A stretch of 64,000 nt of DNA from a virus (taxonomy: Duplodnaviria > Caudoviricetes): IMG/VR virus record IMGVR_UViG_3300028601_000027, positions 1 through 64,000 of that record, one strand, 5' to 3'. The notes under the pieces were generated by a model. It saw only the letters and a list, made by a program, of their open reading frames with translations. It ran no database searches and was not told the DNA's origin. The position numbers and the translations under genes are program-made. Each line of letters begins with the position of its first letter. Position 1 is the first letter of the stretch. Positions 1,594-46,048 of this stretch are shown here, one piece after another.

Positions 1594-2952
1594 ATGGCTA
1601 ATATTCAATTTTTATTCGAGTCAGAATTACTAGTAGAGATAAGTCTACAAGACCACTACGATAAGTTTGGTGATAAGTTTAATGTAGACGATTACGAAAG
1701 ATACCAACAGATAGCCAAATTAGACCCTACATCTAATGATGGTAAGATTAAGGGTAAGTATACTGAATGGCTACTAAAGCAATTTGGTGACATGTCTGAT
1801 AGCGTATTTGAAGCTAATGTTAAAGATAATGATTATAAGAAATGGCTAGAAGGATTAGGTAATATTAAGGGGTTTGATATAAACCAATATAAATCCCTAG
1901 ATGATTTGAAAGATTATTATAATAGCTTAGATGAAGAGGATTTACTTAGTAGTAAGGAAAAGAAAAAGCGTCAGAAAAACATACTACAAAATAGCGAACA
2001 CGTAAAAATCATTTATAAAGATGCTGAATATATAGTAGCTAAACCTATTACTAAGCAGGGTAATATACTATTAGCTAGATATAAGTGTCCTGAATCAGCT
2101 AAATGGTGTACTGCTGATCCTAATAATGATAGTCATTGGGAACGGTATATGGAACGTGGAGAATTATTTAGTGTTATTCCTTTAGCTAATCCTGAAGAGA
2201 AGTTTCATGTATACGTGGAAGATGGATATGTTGACGAGTTAAGAGATTTTGAGGATGATGATTACATGGAAGAAGGATTAGAAATATTAAAGGAACTAGA
2301 TGAGAAAAGTGAAGGACAACTTAGGGAGCAAATGGGAGTAGAGGAATTTGAAAGGTCACAACTAAAATTAGAAATTAGTAACGAAGAATCGGCTATTTAT
2401 TATATTTTTGGTCAACCAGAACTGTTTGATTATTTCAATAGATCACCTAGTGATACTGAAGCGGAAACTGGCGATTATGTAGTAGAATTTATTGCTGATT
2501 TAGATATAAGACCATTAACTCAGAAATTTTTTGGTGGCGTATTTGACTATGGGGTTGAAGGTGATATGCGTGTTGTGAGAAAGTTTGTTGAAGTTTTAGA
2601 GTCAGCAATAGAATCAGAACACATGACTAAGATGGAAATAGAATCGTTTTTTGACTTAGTAGCTGATGAAGAATTTGAAGTAGCAATAGAAAGAATTGGT
2701 GAGGATTTAGCCTATGATTTAGAAAATGAAGAAATAGAAAATCCTAAACAATACGTTATCAACTTTCTTGAAAGAGAAGATTTAAGAAATTACTTAGAAG
2801 AAACTACATCAATGTTAATCCACCAAATAGAATTAAGACTTGATATAACTATTAATAAACCGTGGGAAGATGAAGAAGAAGTACAAGATAGGATATTAGA
2901 CTACTTAAACATAGAAGAATCTAAGAAACCAACTTGGGCTAAGTTTGTATAA
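1594..2952 (+). CDS. Acidic protein with PcfJ-like (WCT..Y...G) domain, possible virion protein
   Basis: KWCTA...WERY..RGELFSVI motif; N-terminus MANIQFLFE shared with the next ORF; follows a late promoter motif. Confidence 0.45.
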   Translation: MANIQFLFESELLVEISLQDHYDKFGDKFNVDDYERYQQIAKLDPTSNDGKIKGKYTEWLLKQFGDMSDSVFEANVKDNDYKKWLEGLGNIKGFDINQYKSLDDLKDYYNSLDEEDLLSSKEKKKRQKNILQNSEHVKIIYKDAEYIVAKPITKQGNILLARYKCPESAKWCTADPNNDSHWERYMERGELFSVIPLANPEEKFHVYVEDGYVDELRDFEDDDYMEEGLEILKELDEKSEGQLREQMGVEEFERSQLKLEISNEESAIYYIFGQPELFDYFNRSPSDTEAETGDYVVEFIADLDIRPLTQKFFGGVFDYGVEGDMRVVRKFVEVLESAIESEHMTKMEIESFFDLVADEEFEVAIERIGEDLAYDLENEEIENPKQYVINFLEREDLRNYLEETTSMLIHQIELRLDITINKPWEDEEEVQDRILDYLNIEESKKPTWAKFV

Positions 2953-2964
2953 AGGATTATCACA

Positions 2965-4719
2965 ATGGCTAATATAGAATTTCTACTAGAAGCAGTTAAT
3001 TATGAACAGATGTTTGAGGGTATGTTTAATGTGTTTGAGGGCGATAACCAAAACAAAGTTAAACAAGCTATCCATAAAGAAATTAAGAAAGCTAAGGCTA
3101 CCTTAAAGAAACAAGATAGAGTTACTTGGTACTTAAAGGTACTTAAGAAAACTATCATTGACGTACTGGACACTGAATTTGATAAGGATAAGAATAGACT
3201 ATACACTACGGGATTAGGAGTATTCGATTTCGATGATGACGAAGAAAGACAAAGAACTAAGGAACGGTTTGAGAAATACTTTAAGAAAGAGATTAAGAAA
3301 CTAAATGATATTAGTATAGAGAACTCTATTCAATCTGTTCAACAAACATTACCTAGATTAGAACATTATCTATCATTGCCTATAGGTGGTATTCAAAACT
3401 ACTCTTGGAAAACCCAATCTATTGATGATGTACTTTCTGAGTTTGAGCGATTAGAAAGAGAATGGAAAAAGGATTCAAAAGAGTTAATACCAGTAGATGA
3501 AGATGATGAGATAATAATGAAAATGGGTGATTATTATTGGGTTGATTTAGAAAAGGCTTATTGTAGTAAAGAAGGTGACGCAATGGGTCACTGTGGTAAT
3601 TCTCCAAGGTCAGGCGAAAATGATACTATTTATAGTCTAAGACAATTAAAAAAGTTTGGTAATAAAAAGTATTGGCATCCACATGTTACTGTTACTCTAG
3701 ATGAAGATTTAATGGTATGGGAAGTTAAGGGTAGAGGGAACGATAAACCTGCTGATAAGTATATCCCTTATGTGGTAGAATTATTTAGTAATGGTAAGTA
3801 TGTTAAAGGACAAAGAACAGGTGTAGGCTACTTACCAGAAAATAACTTATACTTTGAAGATGATTTTACTGAGGAACAACAAGAAAAGGTTAAAACTAAA
3901 AATCCTCAATTTGAGATAGTTGAAAGAGAACCTATTAAAATGGTACTAGATGAATATGATTTACCTGCGTTTGTGTTTTTTGAAGATTTTGATTATGGTC
4001 AGTTTACAAATAGACCAATAGAAAATGGAGAAGACATGGAGGAAGTATTACAAAACGATCCTGAATTAAACATAGCTAATTTTAATAAGCTAATAGATGA
4101 GGGATTAAGTGCTTACCTAGTTTGTGATTATGATTGTGAAGTGAGATTAGAAACGTTTATGAATTACATTAAAGAGTTTATGGAGACTAATAGAAGTGAA
4201 GTAGTACAAGCTATAGCTGATTTATTTGAAGACCAGTACAATGTCTTTATTAACTACTTAGACAATGAAATAGATAAGGAAATAGAAGGCTACATAGATG
4301 AAGAGTTTGATGAGTTTGATTGGACTGAAGATACTCTTGATGCAGAAGATAAAGAAAAAATGTTAGATAAATTAATGAATGATTGGGATTATTTCTTAGA
4401 GGATTATTATAAGAGGCAAGGTACAAAGCTGGGCGATAAGGTTATTGAGTACCTAGAAGAATTGGATTACTTGTTTCCTAATGGTGAAGAGCCATATAAT
4501 CCTAAGCATACGTTTTACGATGTAGTAGATGATGGAGAAGAGTTTATATCAAATAGAATGTTACAAGTGATTAAAGAAAAGAAACGAGAAGCATTAGGTG
4601 ATGATTATGAAGAGGGTGACGAAAAATCACAGGCAGAAATAGATAAAGAACTAGGGCAACTAGAATTTGATTTTGGGGAATCACTAAAACCTAAATGGCG
4701 CAATTTAGTAATTATGTAG
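2965..4719 (+). CDS. Acidic protein with PcfJ-like domain
   Basis: EGDAMGHCG...IYSLR...PHVTV...EVKGRGNDKP motif; N-terminus MANIEFLLE. Confidence 0.55.
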   Translation: MANIEFLLEAVNYEQMFEGMFNVFEGDNQNKVKQAIHKEIKKAKATLKKQDRVTWYLKVLKKTIIDVLDTEFDKDKNRLYTTGLGVFDFDDDEERQRTKERFEKYFKKEIKKLNDISIENSIQSVQQTLPRLEHYLSLPIGGIQNYSWKTQSIDDVLSEFERLEREWKKDSKELIPVDEDDEIIMKMGDYYWVDLEKAYCSKEGDAMGHCGNSPRSGENDTIYSLRQLKKFGNKKYWHPHVTVTLDEDLMVWEVKGRGNDKPADKYIPYVVELFSNGKYVKGQRTGVGYLPENNLYFEDDFTEEQQEKVKTKNPQFEIVEREPIKMVLDEYDLPAFVFFEDFDYGQFTNRPIENGEDMEEVLQNDPELNIANFNKLIDEGLSAYLVCDYDCEVRLETFMNYIKEFMETNRSEVVQAIADLFEDQYNVFINYLDNEIDKEIEGYIDEEFDEFDWTEDTLDAEDKEKMLDKLMNDWDYFLEDYYKRQGTKLGDKVIEYLEELDYLFPNGEEPYNPKHTFYDVVDDGEEFISNRMLQVIKEKKREALGDDYEEGDEKSQAEIDKELGQLEFDFGESLKPKWRNLVIM

Positions 4720-4724
4720 AAGTT

Positions 4725-4757
4725 AAGGTAGGCTATCTATGTGGTAGCCTACCTTTT
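4725..4757. terminator. Rho-independent terminator between convergent genes
   Basis: Stem AAGGTAGGCTA / TAGCCTACCTT plus T-run. Confidence 0.85.
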
Positions 4758-39819: not shown

Positions 39820-42593
39820 TTAATCTCCTGTGTATACAATTTCAGTTTCAACATCCTGAACTTTTAGTGACACTCCAAATTCTTTTAGAAATCCATAACC
39901 CTCAATAAAAGCATCAGGATAGCATTCTGTAATAGAGTGTTTCGATGCTAAGTGCTTAATATGATCATCAATAGTATTAAACGGATACATGTAATCTTTA
40001 AATTCTTTCATCCATTCATTAGTAAACTTAGTTTCATCATATTCCACTTCTACAAGATACGTAACTTCAACTAGTTTCTTTTTCATAGTATCCTCCACAT
40101 TTAAATTTGTTCCTTTCATTTACTAAACTATACACTATTTGTCACTATTTGTAAACAAAAAAAGCACACTAAGACTAAAATAAACCCTTGTGTGCTAAAA
40201 ACCTCATTCTTACTGTTTATCTTCTACCAATTTTCCAATTCATATTCATTACGTCAGGACAATCCTCAATGATGTGCATCTTACCAGCACTGTTTTCAAC
40301 AATATTACTTAATGCACTCATGGAAAAACTATTTTTAATACCATACGTTTCTTTATGACATTTATAGATAGACCTAGAATAACCGTAAAAGTAATAGTAT
40401 TCACTATCTTCTTCTGCACTAAGGATACCCGAATTTAGTCTCCATCTATCTCCATCCAGATACCCCCCACACCACGAAGCAAATACTCTATAGTGTGGAT
40501 CAGTGCCAGTGATTTCTACTAATATCCAATTATGAGGAGTATGCATTACTTTTTCCTAATCTCTAGTGTGATATTGTCCATGTATTCAGATAACCACCAT
40601 TCGCTACCATCTGCAATGTGTTCATTAATAATGTCTAGCATTTCCTCTTTACGAGTGATTTCATTGCAACTTGAGTTAGGGCATTGTTCTACATTTTTAT
40701 CATACCCATTACCACAAATATGACATACCCAAACATCACTATCACATCCGTTACAATCACAACAACATGATTCAGGTCCTATTTCGTCATACATCCAATC
40801 ATGAAATAGGTAGTCGCCATTAGTGTTATCATCACCTAGTTTAATTATCTGACCCATAAATGGTTTCATATCTTCTAAGAACGCTTCACGGGCTTTCATG
40901 CCATATTCCCACCCATAACGATCATACATGTTTTGTAGCAAATCTTCCATTTGTTTTACTTTAACAATTTTCATAATTAGCTCCTATTTGATTTAAAAGA
41001 TAGCCCGATTCCTATAGCGTACTATAGGCGATACCGTTTATACTCGGACACAAAGTGAGCTTCACTACATAGTAGGATAGTCTTGTTGGGGCATGTTTAA
41101 CTTAAGTACAATATACATTATCTCAATCACCTCGTCAATGTGTTATTTCATAAAATCACAATTACCGTCAGATTGATAATCACTTAGTCCGATAAAATCA
41201 TCTTCATGTGTGTTATCTATAACAACACTACTATCTCTAGCAAACGAATAAACACAACCACAATTATTACATTTTATTATTAATTCGTGGAATGAGTTAG
41301 AATCTAATTGTGAGATTACCTTAGTGTCTAAAGTGTTGCATTGTGGACACCTATCTTTACTGATCATGTTCTTTTAGTCCTTTCATAAACTCTATTGTTT
41401 GTTGTACCTGTTCTTCTGTTAAGTATGCTTCGAATGTTTCTGTTCCATTTTTATAGTGTGTGACTAATGTTGATTTGTAGTGTACAGGGTATTCCTTAAT
41501 TTCATCAAAGAAGTAAACATTCAAGTTGTCCTTACAAACATACCTACCATCATACTCAGCAATAAACACTACTGGTTCCCATTCATGTTTAAACTTAGCG
41601 AGTACTGTTTCGCCCTTCTTAGGAATCCACTCATCAAACATATCTAATGCTTCTTGAATAGTGATAATATGAAATTCACATGTTTCGTAGTAACTAATGC
41701 GATCCCAATTTAATGATGGCAGATTTGATAAATTTATACCTATGTGATTATCTTTGACTCCTAATCTCCTCCTATACAACTCATAAATGATAAATTTATC
41801 ATTCCAACCGTTGGTTTCAGCTAACCATTTGAATTTCTCAATGCTTTCTTCACTGTCAATACGTACTACAATTTTGTCACTCATTTTTAATCTCCTAAGT
41901 CCAAAGACATCCATAGTATTTACCAAATAGTCTTAGCCCGTTTTGTATTCTAGCTCCATGTGCTCGATAACCATCTACATCAAATTCACTAGTATCGTTT
42001 TCTCCACGTTCCATTCTAAACAATGTAGCGTCCACATGTGACACTTCATTGCCATCTTTATCTACTGGTATAAATTTAAAATCGATTTTACCATTATGAT
42101 ATTGATCTTCCCAATCTATATTGTATTGTTCAAAAGCCCAAATAATTTCATCTAACACATAATCAAAACGGTCAAACCAATAATCATCAGTCTCATCTAA
42201 TGTATCATTTTCGATTACAGGTCTTTCCAATTCTTTAGGTACATCTTCATTATCGACTAAGGGTGCTCCTTGTTTGTTTTTTTTGAATTCTTTGAGTAGT
42301 GGCAGGATGATATAAGCTAATGTGGAATCAGCAGAATAAGTATCCCAATCATCAATCTTAACTTTCACTTTTTGTATTGGTTGTTTATCATAGTACCACT
42401 TGTTGATAGTGTTGTTTAGTACAATCTGCCAAGCATCACATACCTTTTCGATAAACTTATCTAATTGGGTATATTCAGATTCTTTAATTTCAAAGTGATA
42501 CTTACCATGCAGTTTAGATAAGCACCAGTTTTCAAAAGGACATGTAACCCATCTACTATTAAAATTTCCTATTTTCACTTTCATAGTATTCAC
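39820..42593 (-). CDS. Cluster of hypothetical ORFs (39820-40119, 40217-40546, 40546-40974, 41143-41367, 41357-41926, 41895-42593)
   Basis: ORF track; early promoters near 40150 and 41135. Confidence 0.6.
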
Positions 42594-42595
42594 CT

Positions 42596-43414
42596 TTAAA
42601 ATAAATTATCTAAATTGTTGTTAGCTTCCTCTATTCTTTTCTTAGCTATTTGAAAATAATCTTTATCTAGTTCAACACCAATAAATTTCCTATTAAGATT
42701 AGCACAAGCTACTCCAGTTGTTCCACTACCCATCGTAAAATCCAAAACTGTTTCACCTTCGTTGGTGTAAGTTTTAATCAGGTATTCCATTAAGGCAACT
42801 GGTTTTTGGGTGGGGTGTACAGTCTTACCCTCACTGGCGAAGTCTAGGACTTGTCTGGGATAGTTTGTCAAGGTCTGTTTGTATGGCTTAAGTTCAATTC
42901 CTCCAGTCACCACACTTGTGGCATCAGTTCCCTTCCCTCGCAAAGAGTGACTCTTTGAGTTGTGCTGCATAATATCCACTTCGATAACCCCTTGAGGGTT
43001 GTACACTGGCTGTTTTCGGTAGAAAACCAACACATCCTCAATATCCTTCATGGGCATCTTTTGAGCGTTTAGGTGTCCAGTAGCCCTTGTCTTTCGCCAA
43101 TACCACTGATACTTCAATATCTTGAGGTTTGAAGCACCAAGTACACTTGTAAACGGTTGGCTAGCCGTCATAACAATAGCTCCGTTAGGTTTGATAACTC
43201 GTTTCAACTGCTCCCACATACGTTCTAGGTCAATCACAGTATCCCATTTACAGGCAGTGGTGCCAAGTCAGCCGTAGGGTGGATCGCATAACACTAGGTC
43301 TATAGAGCCGTCTGGGATATATTTCATAACCTCAAGACAATCTCCATGAACCAACGTGTTAGGCAATACGCACCCTACGGGCTGTACCTCCTTCTCGTTA
43401 GTGATAGTAAACAT
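42596..43414 (-). CDS. N6A/N4C DNA methyltransferase interrupted by an in-frame TGA (pseudogene or recoded)
   Basis: ATG 43414; HGDCLEVM...DPPYG*LGTTACKWD...HPTQKPVAL...VLDFTMGSGTT; TGA at 43270-43268. Confidence 0.85.
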
Positions 43415-44037
43415 TAAACAAAATACTCCTGTATGTTTAGCTTTAAATTATTCCACTCGGATTGACTCATGTTATTTTTACACCTGTTCTCGAACCATGT
43501 TAAAAACTGCAAGTTATCAAGCGAATTATCCCCACCTTTTGATTTTGGTATTATATGGTCTATTGAAGGCTTTTTATATTTCAATTTTCCACTACTCAAC
43601 CATGCTAAGTATATTTTGCTAAACTGCTCGTCATAATAAAACCTGCTTATATAGCTTTTGTACCATTCGGTTGATACGTCCCACCTTCCTGACCTATTGG
43701 TTATAGCATCATTGAGTAGTTTCAACTTGTCGAAATCATTGAACTGCATTAACCAATCTGTTGACACATCAAACCTCAAGTGTGTTGCCATGTTGTTATA
43801 ATTGCGCTCAATATCACAATTAAATTTTTTAACGCCTCTTAGGTTTTTTGGCTCCCTAGTTTTTATTCCATTCTTCTTTAGCACTCTTGATATTAGTTTG
43901 TGATTAGTGCCTAGCTTATCCGCTATAGAGCGCATTGAATCGCCCTTTTTGTACAATTCAACTATTACCATGTCAACACTACCATCCGATATTTTTTTCA
44001 TTTCTTCTAAACAATCACCATTATATAAATCTATCAT
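43414..44037 (-). CDS. HNH endonuclease fused to a methyltransferase-type N-terminal peptide
   Basis: MIDLYNGDCLEEMKKISDGSVDMV, then an HTH-like segment and PSIDHIIPKSKGGDNSLDNLQ...EN. Confidence 0.85.
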   Translation of the reverse strand: MIDLYNGDCLEEMKKISDGSVDMVIVELYKKGDSMRSIADKLGTNHKLISRVLKKNGIKTREPKNLRGVKKFNCDIERNYNNMATHLRFDVSTDWLMQFNDFDKLKLLNDAITNRSGRWDVSTEWYKSYISRFYYDEQFSKIYLAWLSSGKLKYKKPSIDHIIPKSKGGDNSLDNLQFLTWFENRCKNNMSQSEWNNLKLNIQEYFV

Positions 44038-45292
44038 AGTCGCTTTCCTTTTTGTTTAAAGGTAGGACAATCATTATATTCATTAAGGTCTTGCGGTTTA
44101 TTAAAGGTTTCATCTTTTGCACCATACCAATTATAAATAGTTATTATATTAGATGGGTGTTTACAAGCATAACCCTTAGGTTGGTATCCGCCCGGTGGAT
44201 TTTTTGACTCATATAGAAACTCACAATCCTTACAATACACTTTTACTTCATCTGCCATACTAATTCCCCTCTCTCATTTTCTACTTTTTCGACTATAATT
44301 TTATTACCAGATAAGGCATCAATTTGTCCATCTGCATAAGTGTAATTTATAGTATTTAAAATAGCACCCATTATGCACACTCCAAGAGCACATCCAACTA
44401 GCATACCTAACCAAAATCCACCACTAAAAATTTCTAATCTCCACTAGTCAAAAGGTTATACAAATCTTCTATACTCTCTAGAGGTATTTCACTACCATCT
44501 TCATCATGTACTGTTAATGCTCTATCATCATATTTCTCTTTGTTGTTACGCTCACCAAAATCTAATTCCCATAACCAATAATTAATCCACTTAGTATCTT
44601 GGTCATCGAATATGTATTCTAGCAGTTCAATGTTTTGTTGTAAGAGTTGCTCACCAAAATTAATAATACCATCACAACTAATGACATCTTCTAGTCTTCT
44701 AGTGTCTTTGATGTACTTCTCAATAGTCTTAATCTTACTCTCAAATTCAGTGTAGTTCATGTTAATCCTCTTCGTTAGCATAAGACAATATAGTGTTTAA
44801 TTGTTGAGATACTTCTTTCTTACCTAGTTTAATACCTTCACTAAATATGCGTTTGCACATATATTCAATAAACTTGTTTTCGTCTATAGCAGAGAAATCA
44901 ATTACAATCTCTGGAATAGGGAGTGAATTATTAGTATAAAAGAACTCTTCAGGAATAACGAATGTCTGTAAACCAACCCGCTCTAGTCCTAGTTCTTCTA
45001 ACTTACCAAGTTTACATCCCCGTCTATTCCTTTTAGGATTTGCTTCTTCCTCAGAAAACACTTGCTCATACATCCAATGTTCAAAAATCCATCCCTCAAA
45101 AATCCATCCCTCTTCGTGTTTTGTATCATCATATTCACCATAAACTAATTCAATAACTTTCCCACATAGATATTTCATGCTTGGACAAAAAAAATAACTT
45201 ACGTCATCGCCTTTATAAACTAAATGACCATATCTTTCTTCGACCTTATCATTTTCTAGCATTTCTTCCCACGTTTTAACTCTAACTTTCAT
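44034..45292 (-). CDS. Hypothetical ORFs (44034-44258, 44434-44781, 44762-45292)
   Basis: ORF track; promoter near 45355. Confidence 0.6.
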
Positions 45293-45361: not shown

Positions 45362-46048
45362 TTATTTTCCAATCAATTCATTTACGCCATCTTCTAGCCA
45401 GTTAAATTCTCCAGTATCTAGCATCTCATTCCACATCAACCAAGCAACTAACCTGATCTCTAGGTGAGCACTCTTATCTAATCGCAGTCTAAAGAAATTT
45501 AATAGCGACCTTAAGTTAACAGTCCATACAAAATCGACTCTAAAATTCTCTGGTAACAAGTATTTTAAAACATCATTATCCTTTTTCTTACTATAGAAAT
45601 CCAGATAATTATAATACAACTCTTCAATTTCTAGTAAGTTGCGTCTTACTAATGATTGCATAAAGTATTTTTGTTTATTCTCACTCCAACCAGTTTCAGA
45701 TAGATCAGGAATAACTAAGTAATCACTGGGTTCTATATTGTCTAACCCTACTCGTTTAATTTCCATAAATAGTTTATCTAATACATAGCGAGTGGATTCT
45801 ACTGTAGGACTAGCTATTCTATGTCTAGCATGTTCTTGTAGTTCTAGTCTACTACTACCACTAATATCAAAGGTAAGATTAATATGTTCTAGTACGGAAC
45901 CGTGACGTTCATTTAGCTTATCATTTAGACAAACCTTCTTTAGTAGTTCTTTATTACACTTGCCATAATTAGCATATGGTTTTTCTAATGCCTTCACTGC
46001 TACCCAAATAGGTGTATGATGTAGTAACTTCACTTTAATTTTTTTCAT
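45362..46048 (-). CDS. thyX: Flavin-dependent thymidylate synthase
   Basis: HGSVLEH...SR...QEHARHRIAS..VESTRY...NLRSL.NF..LR....AH.EIR. Confidence 0.9.
   Translation of the reverse strand: MKKIKVKLLHHTPIWVAVKALEKPYANYGKCNKELLKKVCLNDKLNERHGSVLEHINLTFDISGSSRLELQEHARHRIASPTVESTRYVLDKLFMEIKRVGLDNIEPSDYLVIPDLSETGWSENKQKYFMQSLVRRNLLEIEELYYNYLDFYSKKKDNDVLKYLLPENFRVDFVWTVNLRSLLNFFRLRLDKSAHLEIRLVAWLMWNEMLDTGEFNWLEDGVNELIGK

Follow-up and report, generated by a model that had tools for sequence, protein, structure and literature searches.

The stretch of DNA analyzed here, which we call the window, consists of 64,000 nucleotides from a tailed virus (Duplodnaviria; Caudoviricetes), positions 1 to 64,000 of the IMG/VR record IMGVR_UViG_3300028601_000027, and is part of an 88.9-kb IMG/VR contig from a large lytic phage. 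On its minus strand is a gene (43414-42596) for a beta-class N6/N4 DNA methyltransferase (methylase) in which a first open reading frame (ORF1), an in-frame stop codon and a second open reading frame (ORF2) follow each other, and the stop lies between two identical glycine codons, GGC TGA CTT GGC. A first-pass annotation, made from the letters of the window alone, had proposed that ribosomes hop from the first GGC (the take-off codon) to the second (the landing codon), and the layout that it described is indeed present. The features of the locus are listed in Table 1.

Table 1. Features of the interrupted methyltransferase locus, in window coordinates
Feature	Coordinates	Strand	Remarks
Orphan methyltransferase 5' piece	43963..44037	-	25 codons; ends just before DPPY; in-frame fusion to the HNH ORF
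HTH-HNH homing-endonuclease ORF, 207 aa	43414..44037	-	TAA shares bases with the next ORF's ATG (TAATG)
ORF1, 48 codons	43271..43414	-	Unique N-terminal extension (~20 aa) plus replacement methylase N-terminus; ends DPPYG
Shine-Dalgarno-like AAGGAGGT within ORF1	43386..43393	-	Just 5' of the upstream helix arm; putative role
Long-range RNA helix, 5' arm	43371..43384	-	From inverted repeat, fold and covariation
Long-range RNA helix, 3' arm	43269..43281	-	Spans the Pro-Pro-Tyr codons, the take-off Gly and the first two stop bases
Take-off codon GGC	43271..43273	-	Aligns to G42 of the H101 methylase
In-frame stop TGA	43268..43270	-	Abuts the take-off codon
Spacer CTT, G-free	43265..43267	-	Read from the sequence
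Landing codon GGC	43262..43264	-	Also aligned with H101 methylase G42
ORF2, methyltransferase body	42596..43264	-	222 codons from the landing codon plus stop; TTACKWD; AdoMet-binding motif near the C-terminus

When the protein is read through the TGA, it matches the Pfam family N6_N4_Mtase (PF01555) with 113 bits (cut-off 26.7) over profile positions 1-221, a full domain match that includes the DPPY motif and the C-terminal glycine motif that binds S-adenosylmethionine (AdoMet). Compared with the methylase of Pseudoalteromonas phage H101, ORF1 is 71% identical over residues 15-42 and ORF2, counted from the second GGC, is 58% identical over residues 42-237; the ORF2 frame is open through to its stop at 42598-42596. 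The H101 gene is uninterrupted at this position, and since both glycine codons align to the single H101 residue G42, nine bases are extra in the window. Skipping from one GGC to the other would restore the typical motif, and both flanks are in frame and intact, as the first-pass annotation had stated.

The first-pass annotation missed an HNH nuclease gene and an orphan methylase start immediately upstream, and these are the context that explains the insert. The HNH ORF encodes an N-terminal helix-turn-helix (HTH) domain (Pfam HTH_38, residues 25-56) and a C-terminal nuclease domain (HNH/HNH_4, residues 151-189), and its further matches include PHROG 1035 and additional HNH families. PHROG DNA-methyltransferase families match the same ORF at residues 1-57 and 2-28. 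Because this orphan is fused to the nuclease and ORF1 supplies a replacement, two methylase 5' ends are present at the locus. Homologues of the HNH protein, with 44-48% identity, are encoded by the marine phages H101 (48%) and VnaP (44%), and a tblastn search of 50,697 phage records found no relatives besides these two.

Copies of the cassette on other contigs are 70-85% identical to the window over the HNH gene, 92-100% over the 150 bases of ORF1 and 40-60% downstream of the stop. An HNH motif is present upstream in 44 of the 75 loci that have enough upstream DNA, and the commonest ORF1 length among insert-bearing loci is 48 codons, as in the window. About 20 relatives retain the upstream orphan methylase start, broken at or just after DPP(Y). 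In a few contigs, L163 (~1740-1800), L180 and L162/L249, the orphan copy runs about 12 codons beyond DPPY and its TTACKW region is scrambled, with small in-frame indels of its own; such copies would fit a need to spoil the nuclease target there too. Damage to the orphan copies at this DPP(Y) region, by breakage or scrambling, lends indirect support to a role of the insert in protection against the nuclease.

Some related arrangements differ in order or state. Phage H101 has its uninterrupted methylase at 2868-3653 and the HNH homologue downstream at 4085-4732, which may be the free-standing arrangement that preceded the cassette. The cultured Vibrio phage VnaP (ON212104.1, 2289-3233) has a decayed cassette, in which an orphan start ending in DLP is followed by the HNH gene, with no methylase body downstream. 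Another contig (L097, 1858-3293) has an HNH gene upstream of a methylase with an N-terminal extension and no insert at DPPY; this methylase is frameshifted further downstream.

The insert itself is widespread. Among the best 80 closest methylase loci in IMG/VR, six have a stop inside the same motif. DNA pattern scans, in which the DPPY-Gly codons and the next Gly/Ser-Thr-Thr codons were fixed, the gap between them was left free and the landing position was required to be RGN, matched 30 viral contigs, at least 119 metagenome contigs and 14 contigs of metagenome-assembled genomes (MAGs; species-representative genomes). The first-pass annotation had suggested a check of homologs for the same 9-base insert; inserts at this spot, of 4-11 extra bases, recur in at least about 150 phage, metagenome and MAG loci.

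The metagenome counts given from here on are among the 119 matches listed. A stop codon follows the first glycine codon directly in 118 of them (80 TGA, 25 TAG and 13 TAA), and only once is an insert kept with a sense codon there (AAT); the stop is also at this position in 30 of the 30 viral loci. With 4- and 5-base inserts, the stop shares bases with the landing codon. Inserts of 4, 5, 6, 7, 8, 9, 10 and 11 bases occur in 3, 1, 11, 6, 7, 66, 20 and 5 of the metagenome loci, respectively, so that 42 of the 119 inserts change the frame. Counting from the landing codon, ORF2 reaches 200 aa or more in 72 of the 79 loci in which it ends inside the contig. Both codons are GGN in 106 of the 119 loci. 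The spacers after the stop contain 2 G in 316 nt, compared to 24% G in the flanks, and in the 9-base class most spacer codons encode Ile or Leu, with variation at the third position.

In a sister class, made up of 23 viral loci, the extra bases number exactly six and lie between DPP and YG; they are always a stop followed by a pyrimidine-pyrimidine-N codon that could re-pair with the tRNA-Pro anticodon. One member of the glycine class is a cultured, thermophilic phage, Geobacillus phage vB_GthS_PK3.6 (OP341627.1, 1763-2540), which was also the sole match when 43225-43425 of the window was compared by blastn with phage records. PK3.6 has a 7-base variant (Gly, TAA, one base, Gly) and no HNH gene, and GenBank annotates the gene as two 'DNA-methyltransferase' coding sequences (CDSs) with an 8-nt overlap. 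One Leptolyngbyaceae MAG has near-identical methylase copies with a 5-base insert on six contigs (L336, L337, L340, L346, L347 and L348), in each of which the stop arises by overlap with the landing codon and ORF2 is 232-238 aa long; for a phage device, one would not have expected several copies in the genome bin of a cyanobacterium.

From these comparisons we think it reasonably probable that ribosomes hop over the insert at the window locus. The spread of insert lengths bears on another explanation, which we regard as unlikely, namely that a near-cognate tRNA (Trp) reads the TGA in the in-frame 9-base class and that a low level of enzyme is made with Trp-Leu-Gly after DPPYG. UGA is known to be leaky when followed by C or A, and most insert-bearing relatives have one of these two bases behind their stop; the Ile and Leu spacer codons of the 9-base class, which vary at the third position, could also reflect a coding constraint. 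However, the 42 inserts that are not multiples of three, for which readthrough could not yield the enzyme, come with the same stop, the same helix (described below) and an intact ORF2, all three stop codons are used, and the stop position is a sense codon only in the AAT case. In addition, the loop from DPPY to WD is 12 residues long in 78 of 84 relatives, and with this catalytic loop fixed in length, a 3-residue insert in it would likely be harmful.

A reading of TGA as a sense codon was rejected: TGA ends 10 of the 74 window ORFs of at least 100 aa, and relatives use TAG and TAA at the site. ORFs cover 82% of the window under translation table 11, and no tRNA genes were found in the window. 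Frameshifting would need a separate slip for each insert length. As to the origin of the insert, a tandem duplication of nine bases was rejected as well, as the insert and the next nine bases agree at 4 of 9 positions when compared by eye.

The first-pass annotation had also pointed out an inverted repeat that covers the take-off codon and the stop. Its two arms form 10 bp, a one-base bulge and 3 bp more, a duplex with z = -4.2 against shuffles; we found nothing to support the label 'GTAG-REP-like' that had been given to it. The minimum free energy fold of 43414-43250 includes the repeat (-65.1 kcal/mol, z = -5.6). In an alignment of 25 sequences, the 10-bp core of the helix is paired in 96% of the cells, versus 37-45% in slid controls, and at three of its pairs both partners are substituted, in step with synonymous third-position changes in the Pro, Pro and Tyr codons. 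The covariation score of the helix is 0.298 versus 0.126 in shuffles, with 0 of 500 shuffles reaching 0.298, and RNAalifold predicts from the alignment the long-range helix alone. The helix contains U-G pairs, which indicates that it forms in the sense-strand RNA. It also goes with the insert: a paired run of at least 8 bp was found in 91% of 100 insert-bearing loci, always 100-120 nt upstream, and in 18% of 76 uninterrupted relatives, at scattered positions (Mann-Whitney U, p = 2e-24). The sister class carries a covarying helix of its own.

A Shine-Dalgarno (SD)-like element, AAGGAGG(T), is present 5-9 nt 5' of the upstream arm in 84% of the insert-bearing loci. It is conserved across different reading frames and in one locus (L178) lies outside ORF1. 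There is no start codon at a usable distance after it in the window or in the alignment. Internal initiation by means of this element across the helix was rejected, as no start codon follows the stop and the product would be without DPPY. In PK3.6, the 5' arm overlaps the start codon of ORF1 and the SD-like element is a real ribosome-binding site.

The covarying helix shows that RNA structure matters at this site, and in this it would agree with removal of the insert before translation, whether through editing or a splicing-like event in the RNA or through heterogeneity of the DNA. We consider such removal extremely improbable. For relatives that are about 90% alike, two metatranscriptome libraries of one study contain contigs that run across the site uninterrupted; DNA carry-over is possible in these libraries, and the contigs are weak evidence that the insert is present in the RNA. 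We know of no self-splicing unit nearly as small as inserts of 4-11 bases. Furthermore, the upstream orphan of the window is without DPPY, and so splicing could not rebuild the gene from it. A group I intron or other RNA family was rejected as an identity for the element: cmscan of 42300-44400 at E up to 10 gave four chance-level hits only, and no Rfam family, group I introns included, matched.

A further explanation is that the enzyme is split, with ORF1 ending at the stop, ORF2 being reinitiated, and the 48-residue peptide and the body assembling into an active methylase. A gene that still works after being split by a homing endonuclease has been reported, nrdA in Aeh1 (as cited in a passage of bioRxiv 10.1101/2022.08.31.505936). 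The end of ORF1 is overlapped by an ATG in the ORF2 frame in PK3.6 as well as in the 10-base clade, and the two methylase CDSs of the PK3.6 GenBank entry also speak for a split enzyme. We nevertheless judge it very unlikely as a general explanation, because a canonical start in the ORF2 frame near the landing codon is present in 0 of the 82 loci of the 6- and 9-base classes, which include the window, and in only 3 of the 18 loci of the 5-, 7-, 8- and 11-base classes. The first in-frame start in the window is a GTG nine codons past the landing codon, beyond TTACKWD.

The state of ORF2 bears on the possibility that the gene is simply dead or dying, the insert being a scar of nuclease immunity or the end of the cassette and the intact frames being the result of recent invasions. 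Seven of the 79 ORF2s are truncated, some loci are clearly decayed (VnaP, L200, L209 and L171 are decayed or short), and the cassette is far more alike between loci than is the downstream gene, as would be the case for a mobile element entering different genes. However, a neutral scar would not be expected to hold a stop in 118 of 119 loci when the spacer next to it is variable and the stop itself may be any of TGA, TAG and TAA, nor would one expect it to have a covarying, insert-specific helix and a G-free spacer. Loci without an HNH gene still hold the insert together with an intact ORF2. The ratio of nonsynonymous to synonymous substitution rates (omega, or dN/dS) among insert-bearing pairs is 0.02-0.25, which speaks against a dead gene. 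In the 10-base clade, omega of ORF2 is 0.02-0.11 at dS up to 0.4, and an 8-base pair without a start codon gives 0.19 at saturated dS; most insert-bearing pairs are too divergent for this analysis, and the close pairs fall in the 10-base clade. As the cleanest values come from a clade that has an ATG at the site, they support a living gene better than they support a hop. We consider a dead gene unlikely, although of the alternatives weighed here it has the strongest case.

Several observations weigh against a hop, the truncated ORF2s among them. The contigs of two probable source runs, both from landfill and together containing 99% of the sequence words of the window, leave 43233-43281 uncovered, so the TGA of the window is not confirmed read by read; a sequencing error is unlikely, since the same insert occurs in many independent assemblies, and one contig (L341) has an insert identical to that of the window. 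The landing codon is AGC, AGT or AGA in 13 of the 119 metagenome loci, and one relative (L068/L169) has AGC as the take-off codon, so that the codons are not strictly matched in every member. The insert of the window leaves the frame as it was, and readthrough would therefore also give a full-length protein. In the 10-base clade, 13 of 16 loci have the ATG in the ORF2 frame at the site, so that an enzyme made of two polypeptides is possible there. Finally, if the cassette moves between genes, the intact downstream ORFs could in part reflect recent invasions.

A ribosomal hop is, all the same, the only explanation weighed here that fits the comparative data, that is, the conserved stop, the intact ORF2 behind inserts of all frames and the covarying stem that is specific to the insert. 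The same data support the specific form in which the first-pass annotation had put it, a hop between matched glycine codons assisted by a stem. The anatomy of the locus, its recurrence, the conserved stop, the frame independence, the covarying helix and the link to the HNH gene are all established.

The explanation that we favor, and hold to be somewhat better than an even bet, joins the hop to the cassette. It would have an HNH homing-endonuclease cassette (44037-42596), an analogue and not a homologue of T4 mobA/gene 60, sitting in the methylase gene, with the insert spoiling the nuclease target and a glycine-to-glycine stop-hop carrying the ribosome across it. The cassette would have delivered the HTH-HNH nuclease gene, the replacement methylase 5' end (ORF1) and the 9-base insert. 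The insert would have gone in right behind the DPPY-Gly codons, where the target DNA is most conserved, while the old 5' end would have stayed upstream as the orphan. By disrupting the recognition site of the nuclease, the insert would keep the carrier genome from being cut, and if it is not translated, then no residues are added to the catalytic loop. We infer the nuclease target, like the hop and its efficiency, from comparison of the loci. The first-pass annotation had read the arrangement as programmed low-level expression of the methylase. That purpose is not shown; protection against the nuclease of the cassette appears to be better supported, by analogy with T4.

During translation, a ribosome on ORF1 would reach the GGC with the TGA in its A site, and termination at this TGA would be slow. 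The peptidyl-tRNA-Gly would then release the GGC, the mRNA would slide by nine bases and the tRNA would re-pair with the second GGC, after which decoding would restart at ACC and yield a normal DPPYG-TTACKWD enzyme. The arm about 115 nt upstream could zip with the take-off region as the latter leaves the ribosome and so favor forward movement. A single model might cover all of the variants: with a stop in the A site, a peptidyl-tRNA-Gly (or Pro) would let go of its codon, the mRNA would slide, and the tRNA would pair anew with the next codon that resembles the first. The G-poor spacers would be expected if tRNA-Gly scans for its codon. A broader proposal, which we offer more tentatively, is that these loci form a large natural family of stop-hops that is independent of T4 gene 60. 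In such a family, the helix, perhaps together with the SD-like element, would close up behind the ribosome and pull the message by 4-14 bases in any frame, from Gly or, in the sister class, from Pro, and homing endonucleases would exploit the hop to lodge an untranslated 'immunity' insert where their target gene is most conserved.

The closest known parallel is the bypass in T4 gene 60 with its MobA HNH element (Bonocora et al. 2011, PMC3182709, as cited in PMC5009743; also treated in parts of Manning & Atkins, bioRxiv 10.1101/2022.08.31.505936). The MobA layout consists of the HNH gene, an N-terminal extension, a region of homologous replacement and a bypass that opens with a stop, and the insert protects against self-cleavage (bioRxiv 10.1101/2022.08.31.505936). 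The methylase cassette is alike in many respects. In both, an HNH gene lies within a conserved enzyme gene and is followed by a new downstream ORF, whose N-terminal extension is unique and is joined to a copy that replaces the displaced target sequence (46 codons in T4, 48 in the methylase). Both have an untranslated insert (in the methylase, by our proposal) that opens with an in-frame stop after a glycine take-off codon and ends at a matching glycine landing codon, and both have conserved mRNA pairing 5' of the take-off site as well as an SD-like element. Some members of each family have lost the nuclease and kept the insert. Pairing of the mRNA as it leaves the ribosome has been proposed as the forward driver in gene 60 (bioRxiv 10.1101/2024.12.09.627546), and the long-range methylase helix could act like this exit-side pairing.

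There are also clear differences. The target is the large subunit of topoisomerase in T4 and a PF01555 methyltransferase here, and cassettes of the gene 60 type have been found only in topoisomerase genes (bioRxiv 10.1101/2022.08.31.505936). Nothing in the HNH protein of the methylase cassette, with its N-terminal HTH and C-terminal HNH domains, points to homology with MobA. The absence of HNH similarity beyond two marine phages, together with the different target, would make the cassette an analogue of MobA and not a homologue. The T4-type gap has 20-50 untranslated bases, whereas that of the methylase family has 1-8. In the window, it is only 6 nt (TGA plus CTT), which leaves no room for a take-off stem-loop or an internal SD; the SD-like AAGGAGGT is about 120 nt upstream, beside the 5' arm and not inside the gap. 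The helix is local in T4 and long-range (~115 nt) in the methylase. The 5' end of the target is duplicated in the methylase, whereas the T4 gene is split into two functional subunits. Unlike T4, the methylase family has a second insertion point that uses Pro codons. Finally, the T4 bypass is experimentally proven, whereas the methylase hop is proposed from sequence comparison.

Two other systems are worth comparing. Synthetic 'stop-hops' in Escherichia coli (Weiss, Dunn, Atkins & Gesteland 1987, as described in a section of PMC5009743) were engineered and of low efficiency. There, a peptidyl-tRNA passes an adjacent stop to a matching codon, as we propose for the methylase family, and the 6-base members of this family (Gly-stop-Gly) have precisely the stop-hop layout, with nine nucleotides for one residue. 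The methylase layout differs in being natural and conserved, in having accessory RNA elements and in usually having 1-5 extra spacer bases. According to the 2016 review by Atkins and colleagues (PMC5009743), no natural in-frame stop-hop is known. The second system is that of the mitochondrial 'byps' of Magnusiomyces capitatus, inserts of 27-55 nt with an unused sense codon in the A site (described in a part of PMC5009743). Like these, the methylase inserts are many short mobile insertions in coding sequences, which would be rendered harmless by bypass with matched codons. Unlike the methylase inserts, the byps are mitochondrial, have no stop in the A site and have no linked homing endonuclease.

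Programmed translational bypassing is among the rarest of decoding events; to our knowledge, T4 gene 60 and its topoisomerase-gene homologues are essentially the one case in bacteria and phages. Full-text searches of the literature turned up no account of a methyltransferase gene with a bypass or hop, and the PK3.6 genome paper makes no mention of a split methylase. If the hop is true, well over a hundred natural variants exist, with gaps of 1-8 bases, three stops, two tRNA species and a covarying helix, and they would allow the rules of take-off, sliding and landing to be tested. It would also mean that homing endonucleases have evolved at least twice an untranslated insert that spoils the target without changing the host protein. 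Annotation would be affected, as such genes are now called pseudogenes or, as in PK3.6, two 'methyltransferase' CDSs. Because a cultured phage carries the device, the claim is directly testable.

Elsewhere on the minus strand of the window (45362-46048), an ORF resembles a flavin-dependent thymidylate synthase, with a RHR..S motif of the ThyX type; such a gene is ordinary in a large lytic phage.

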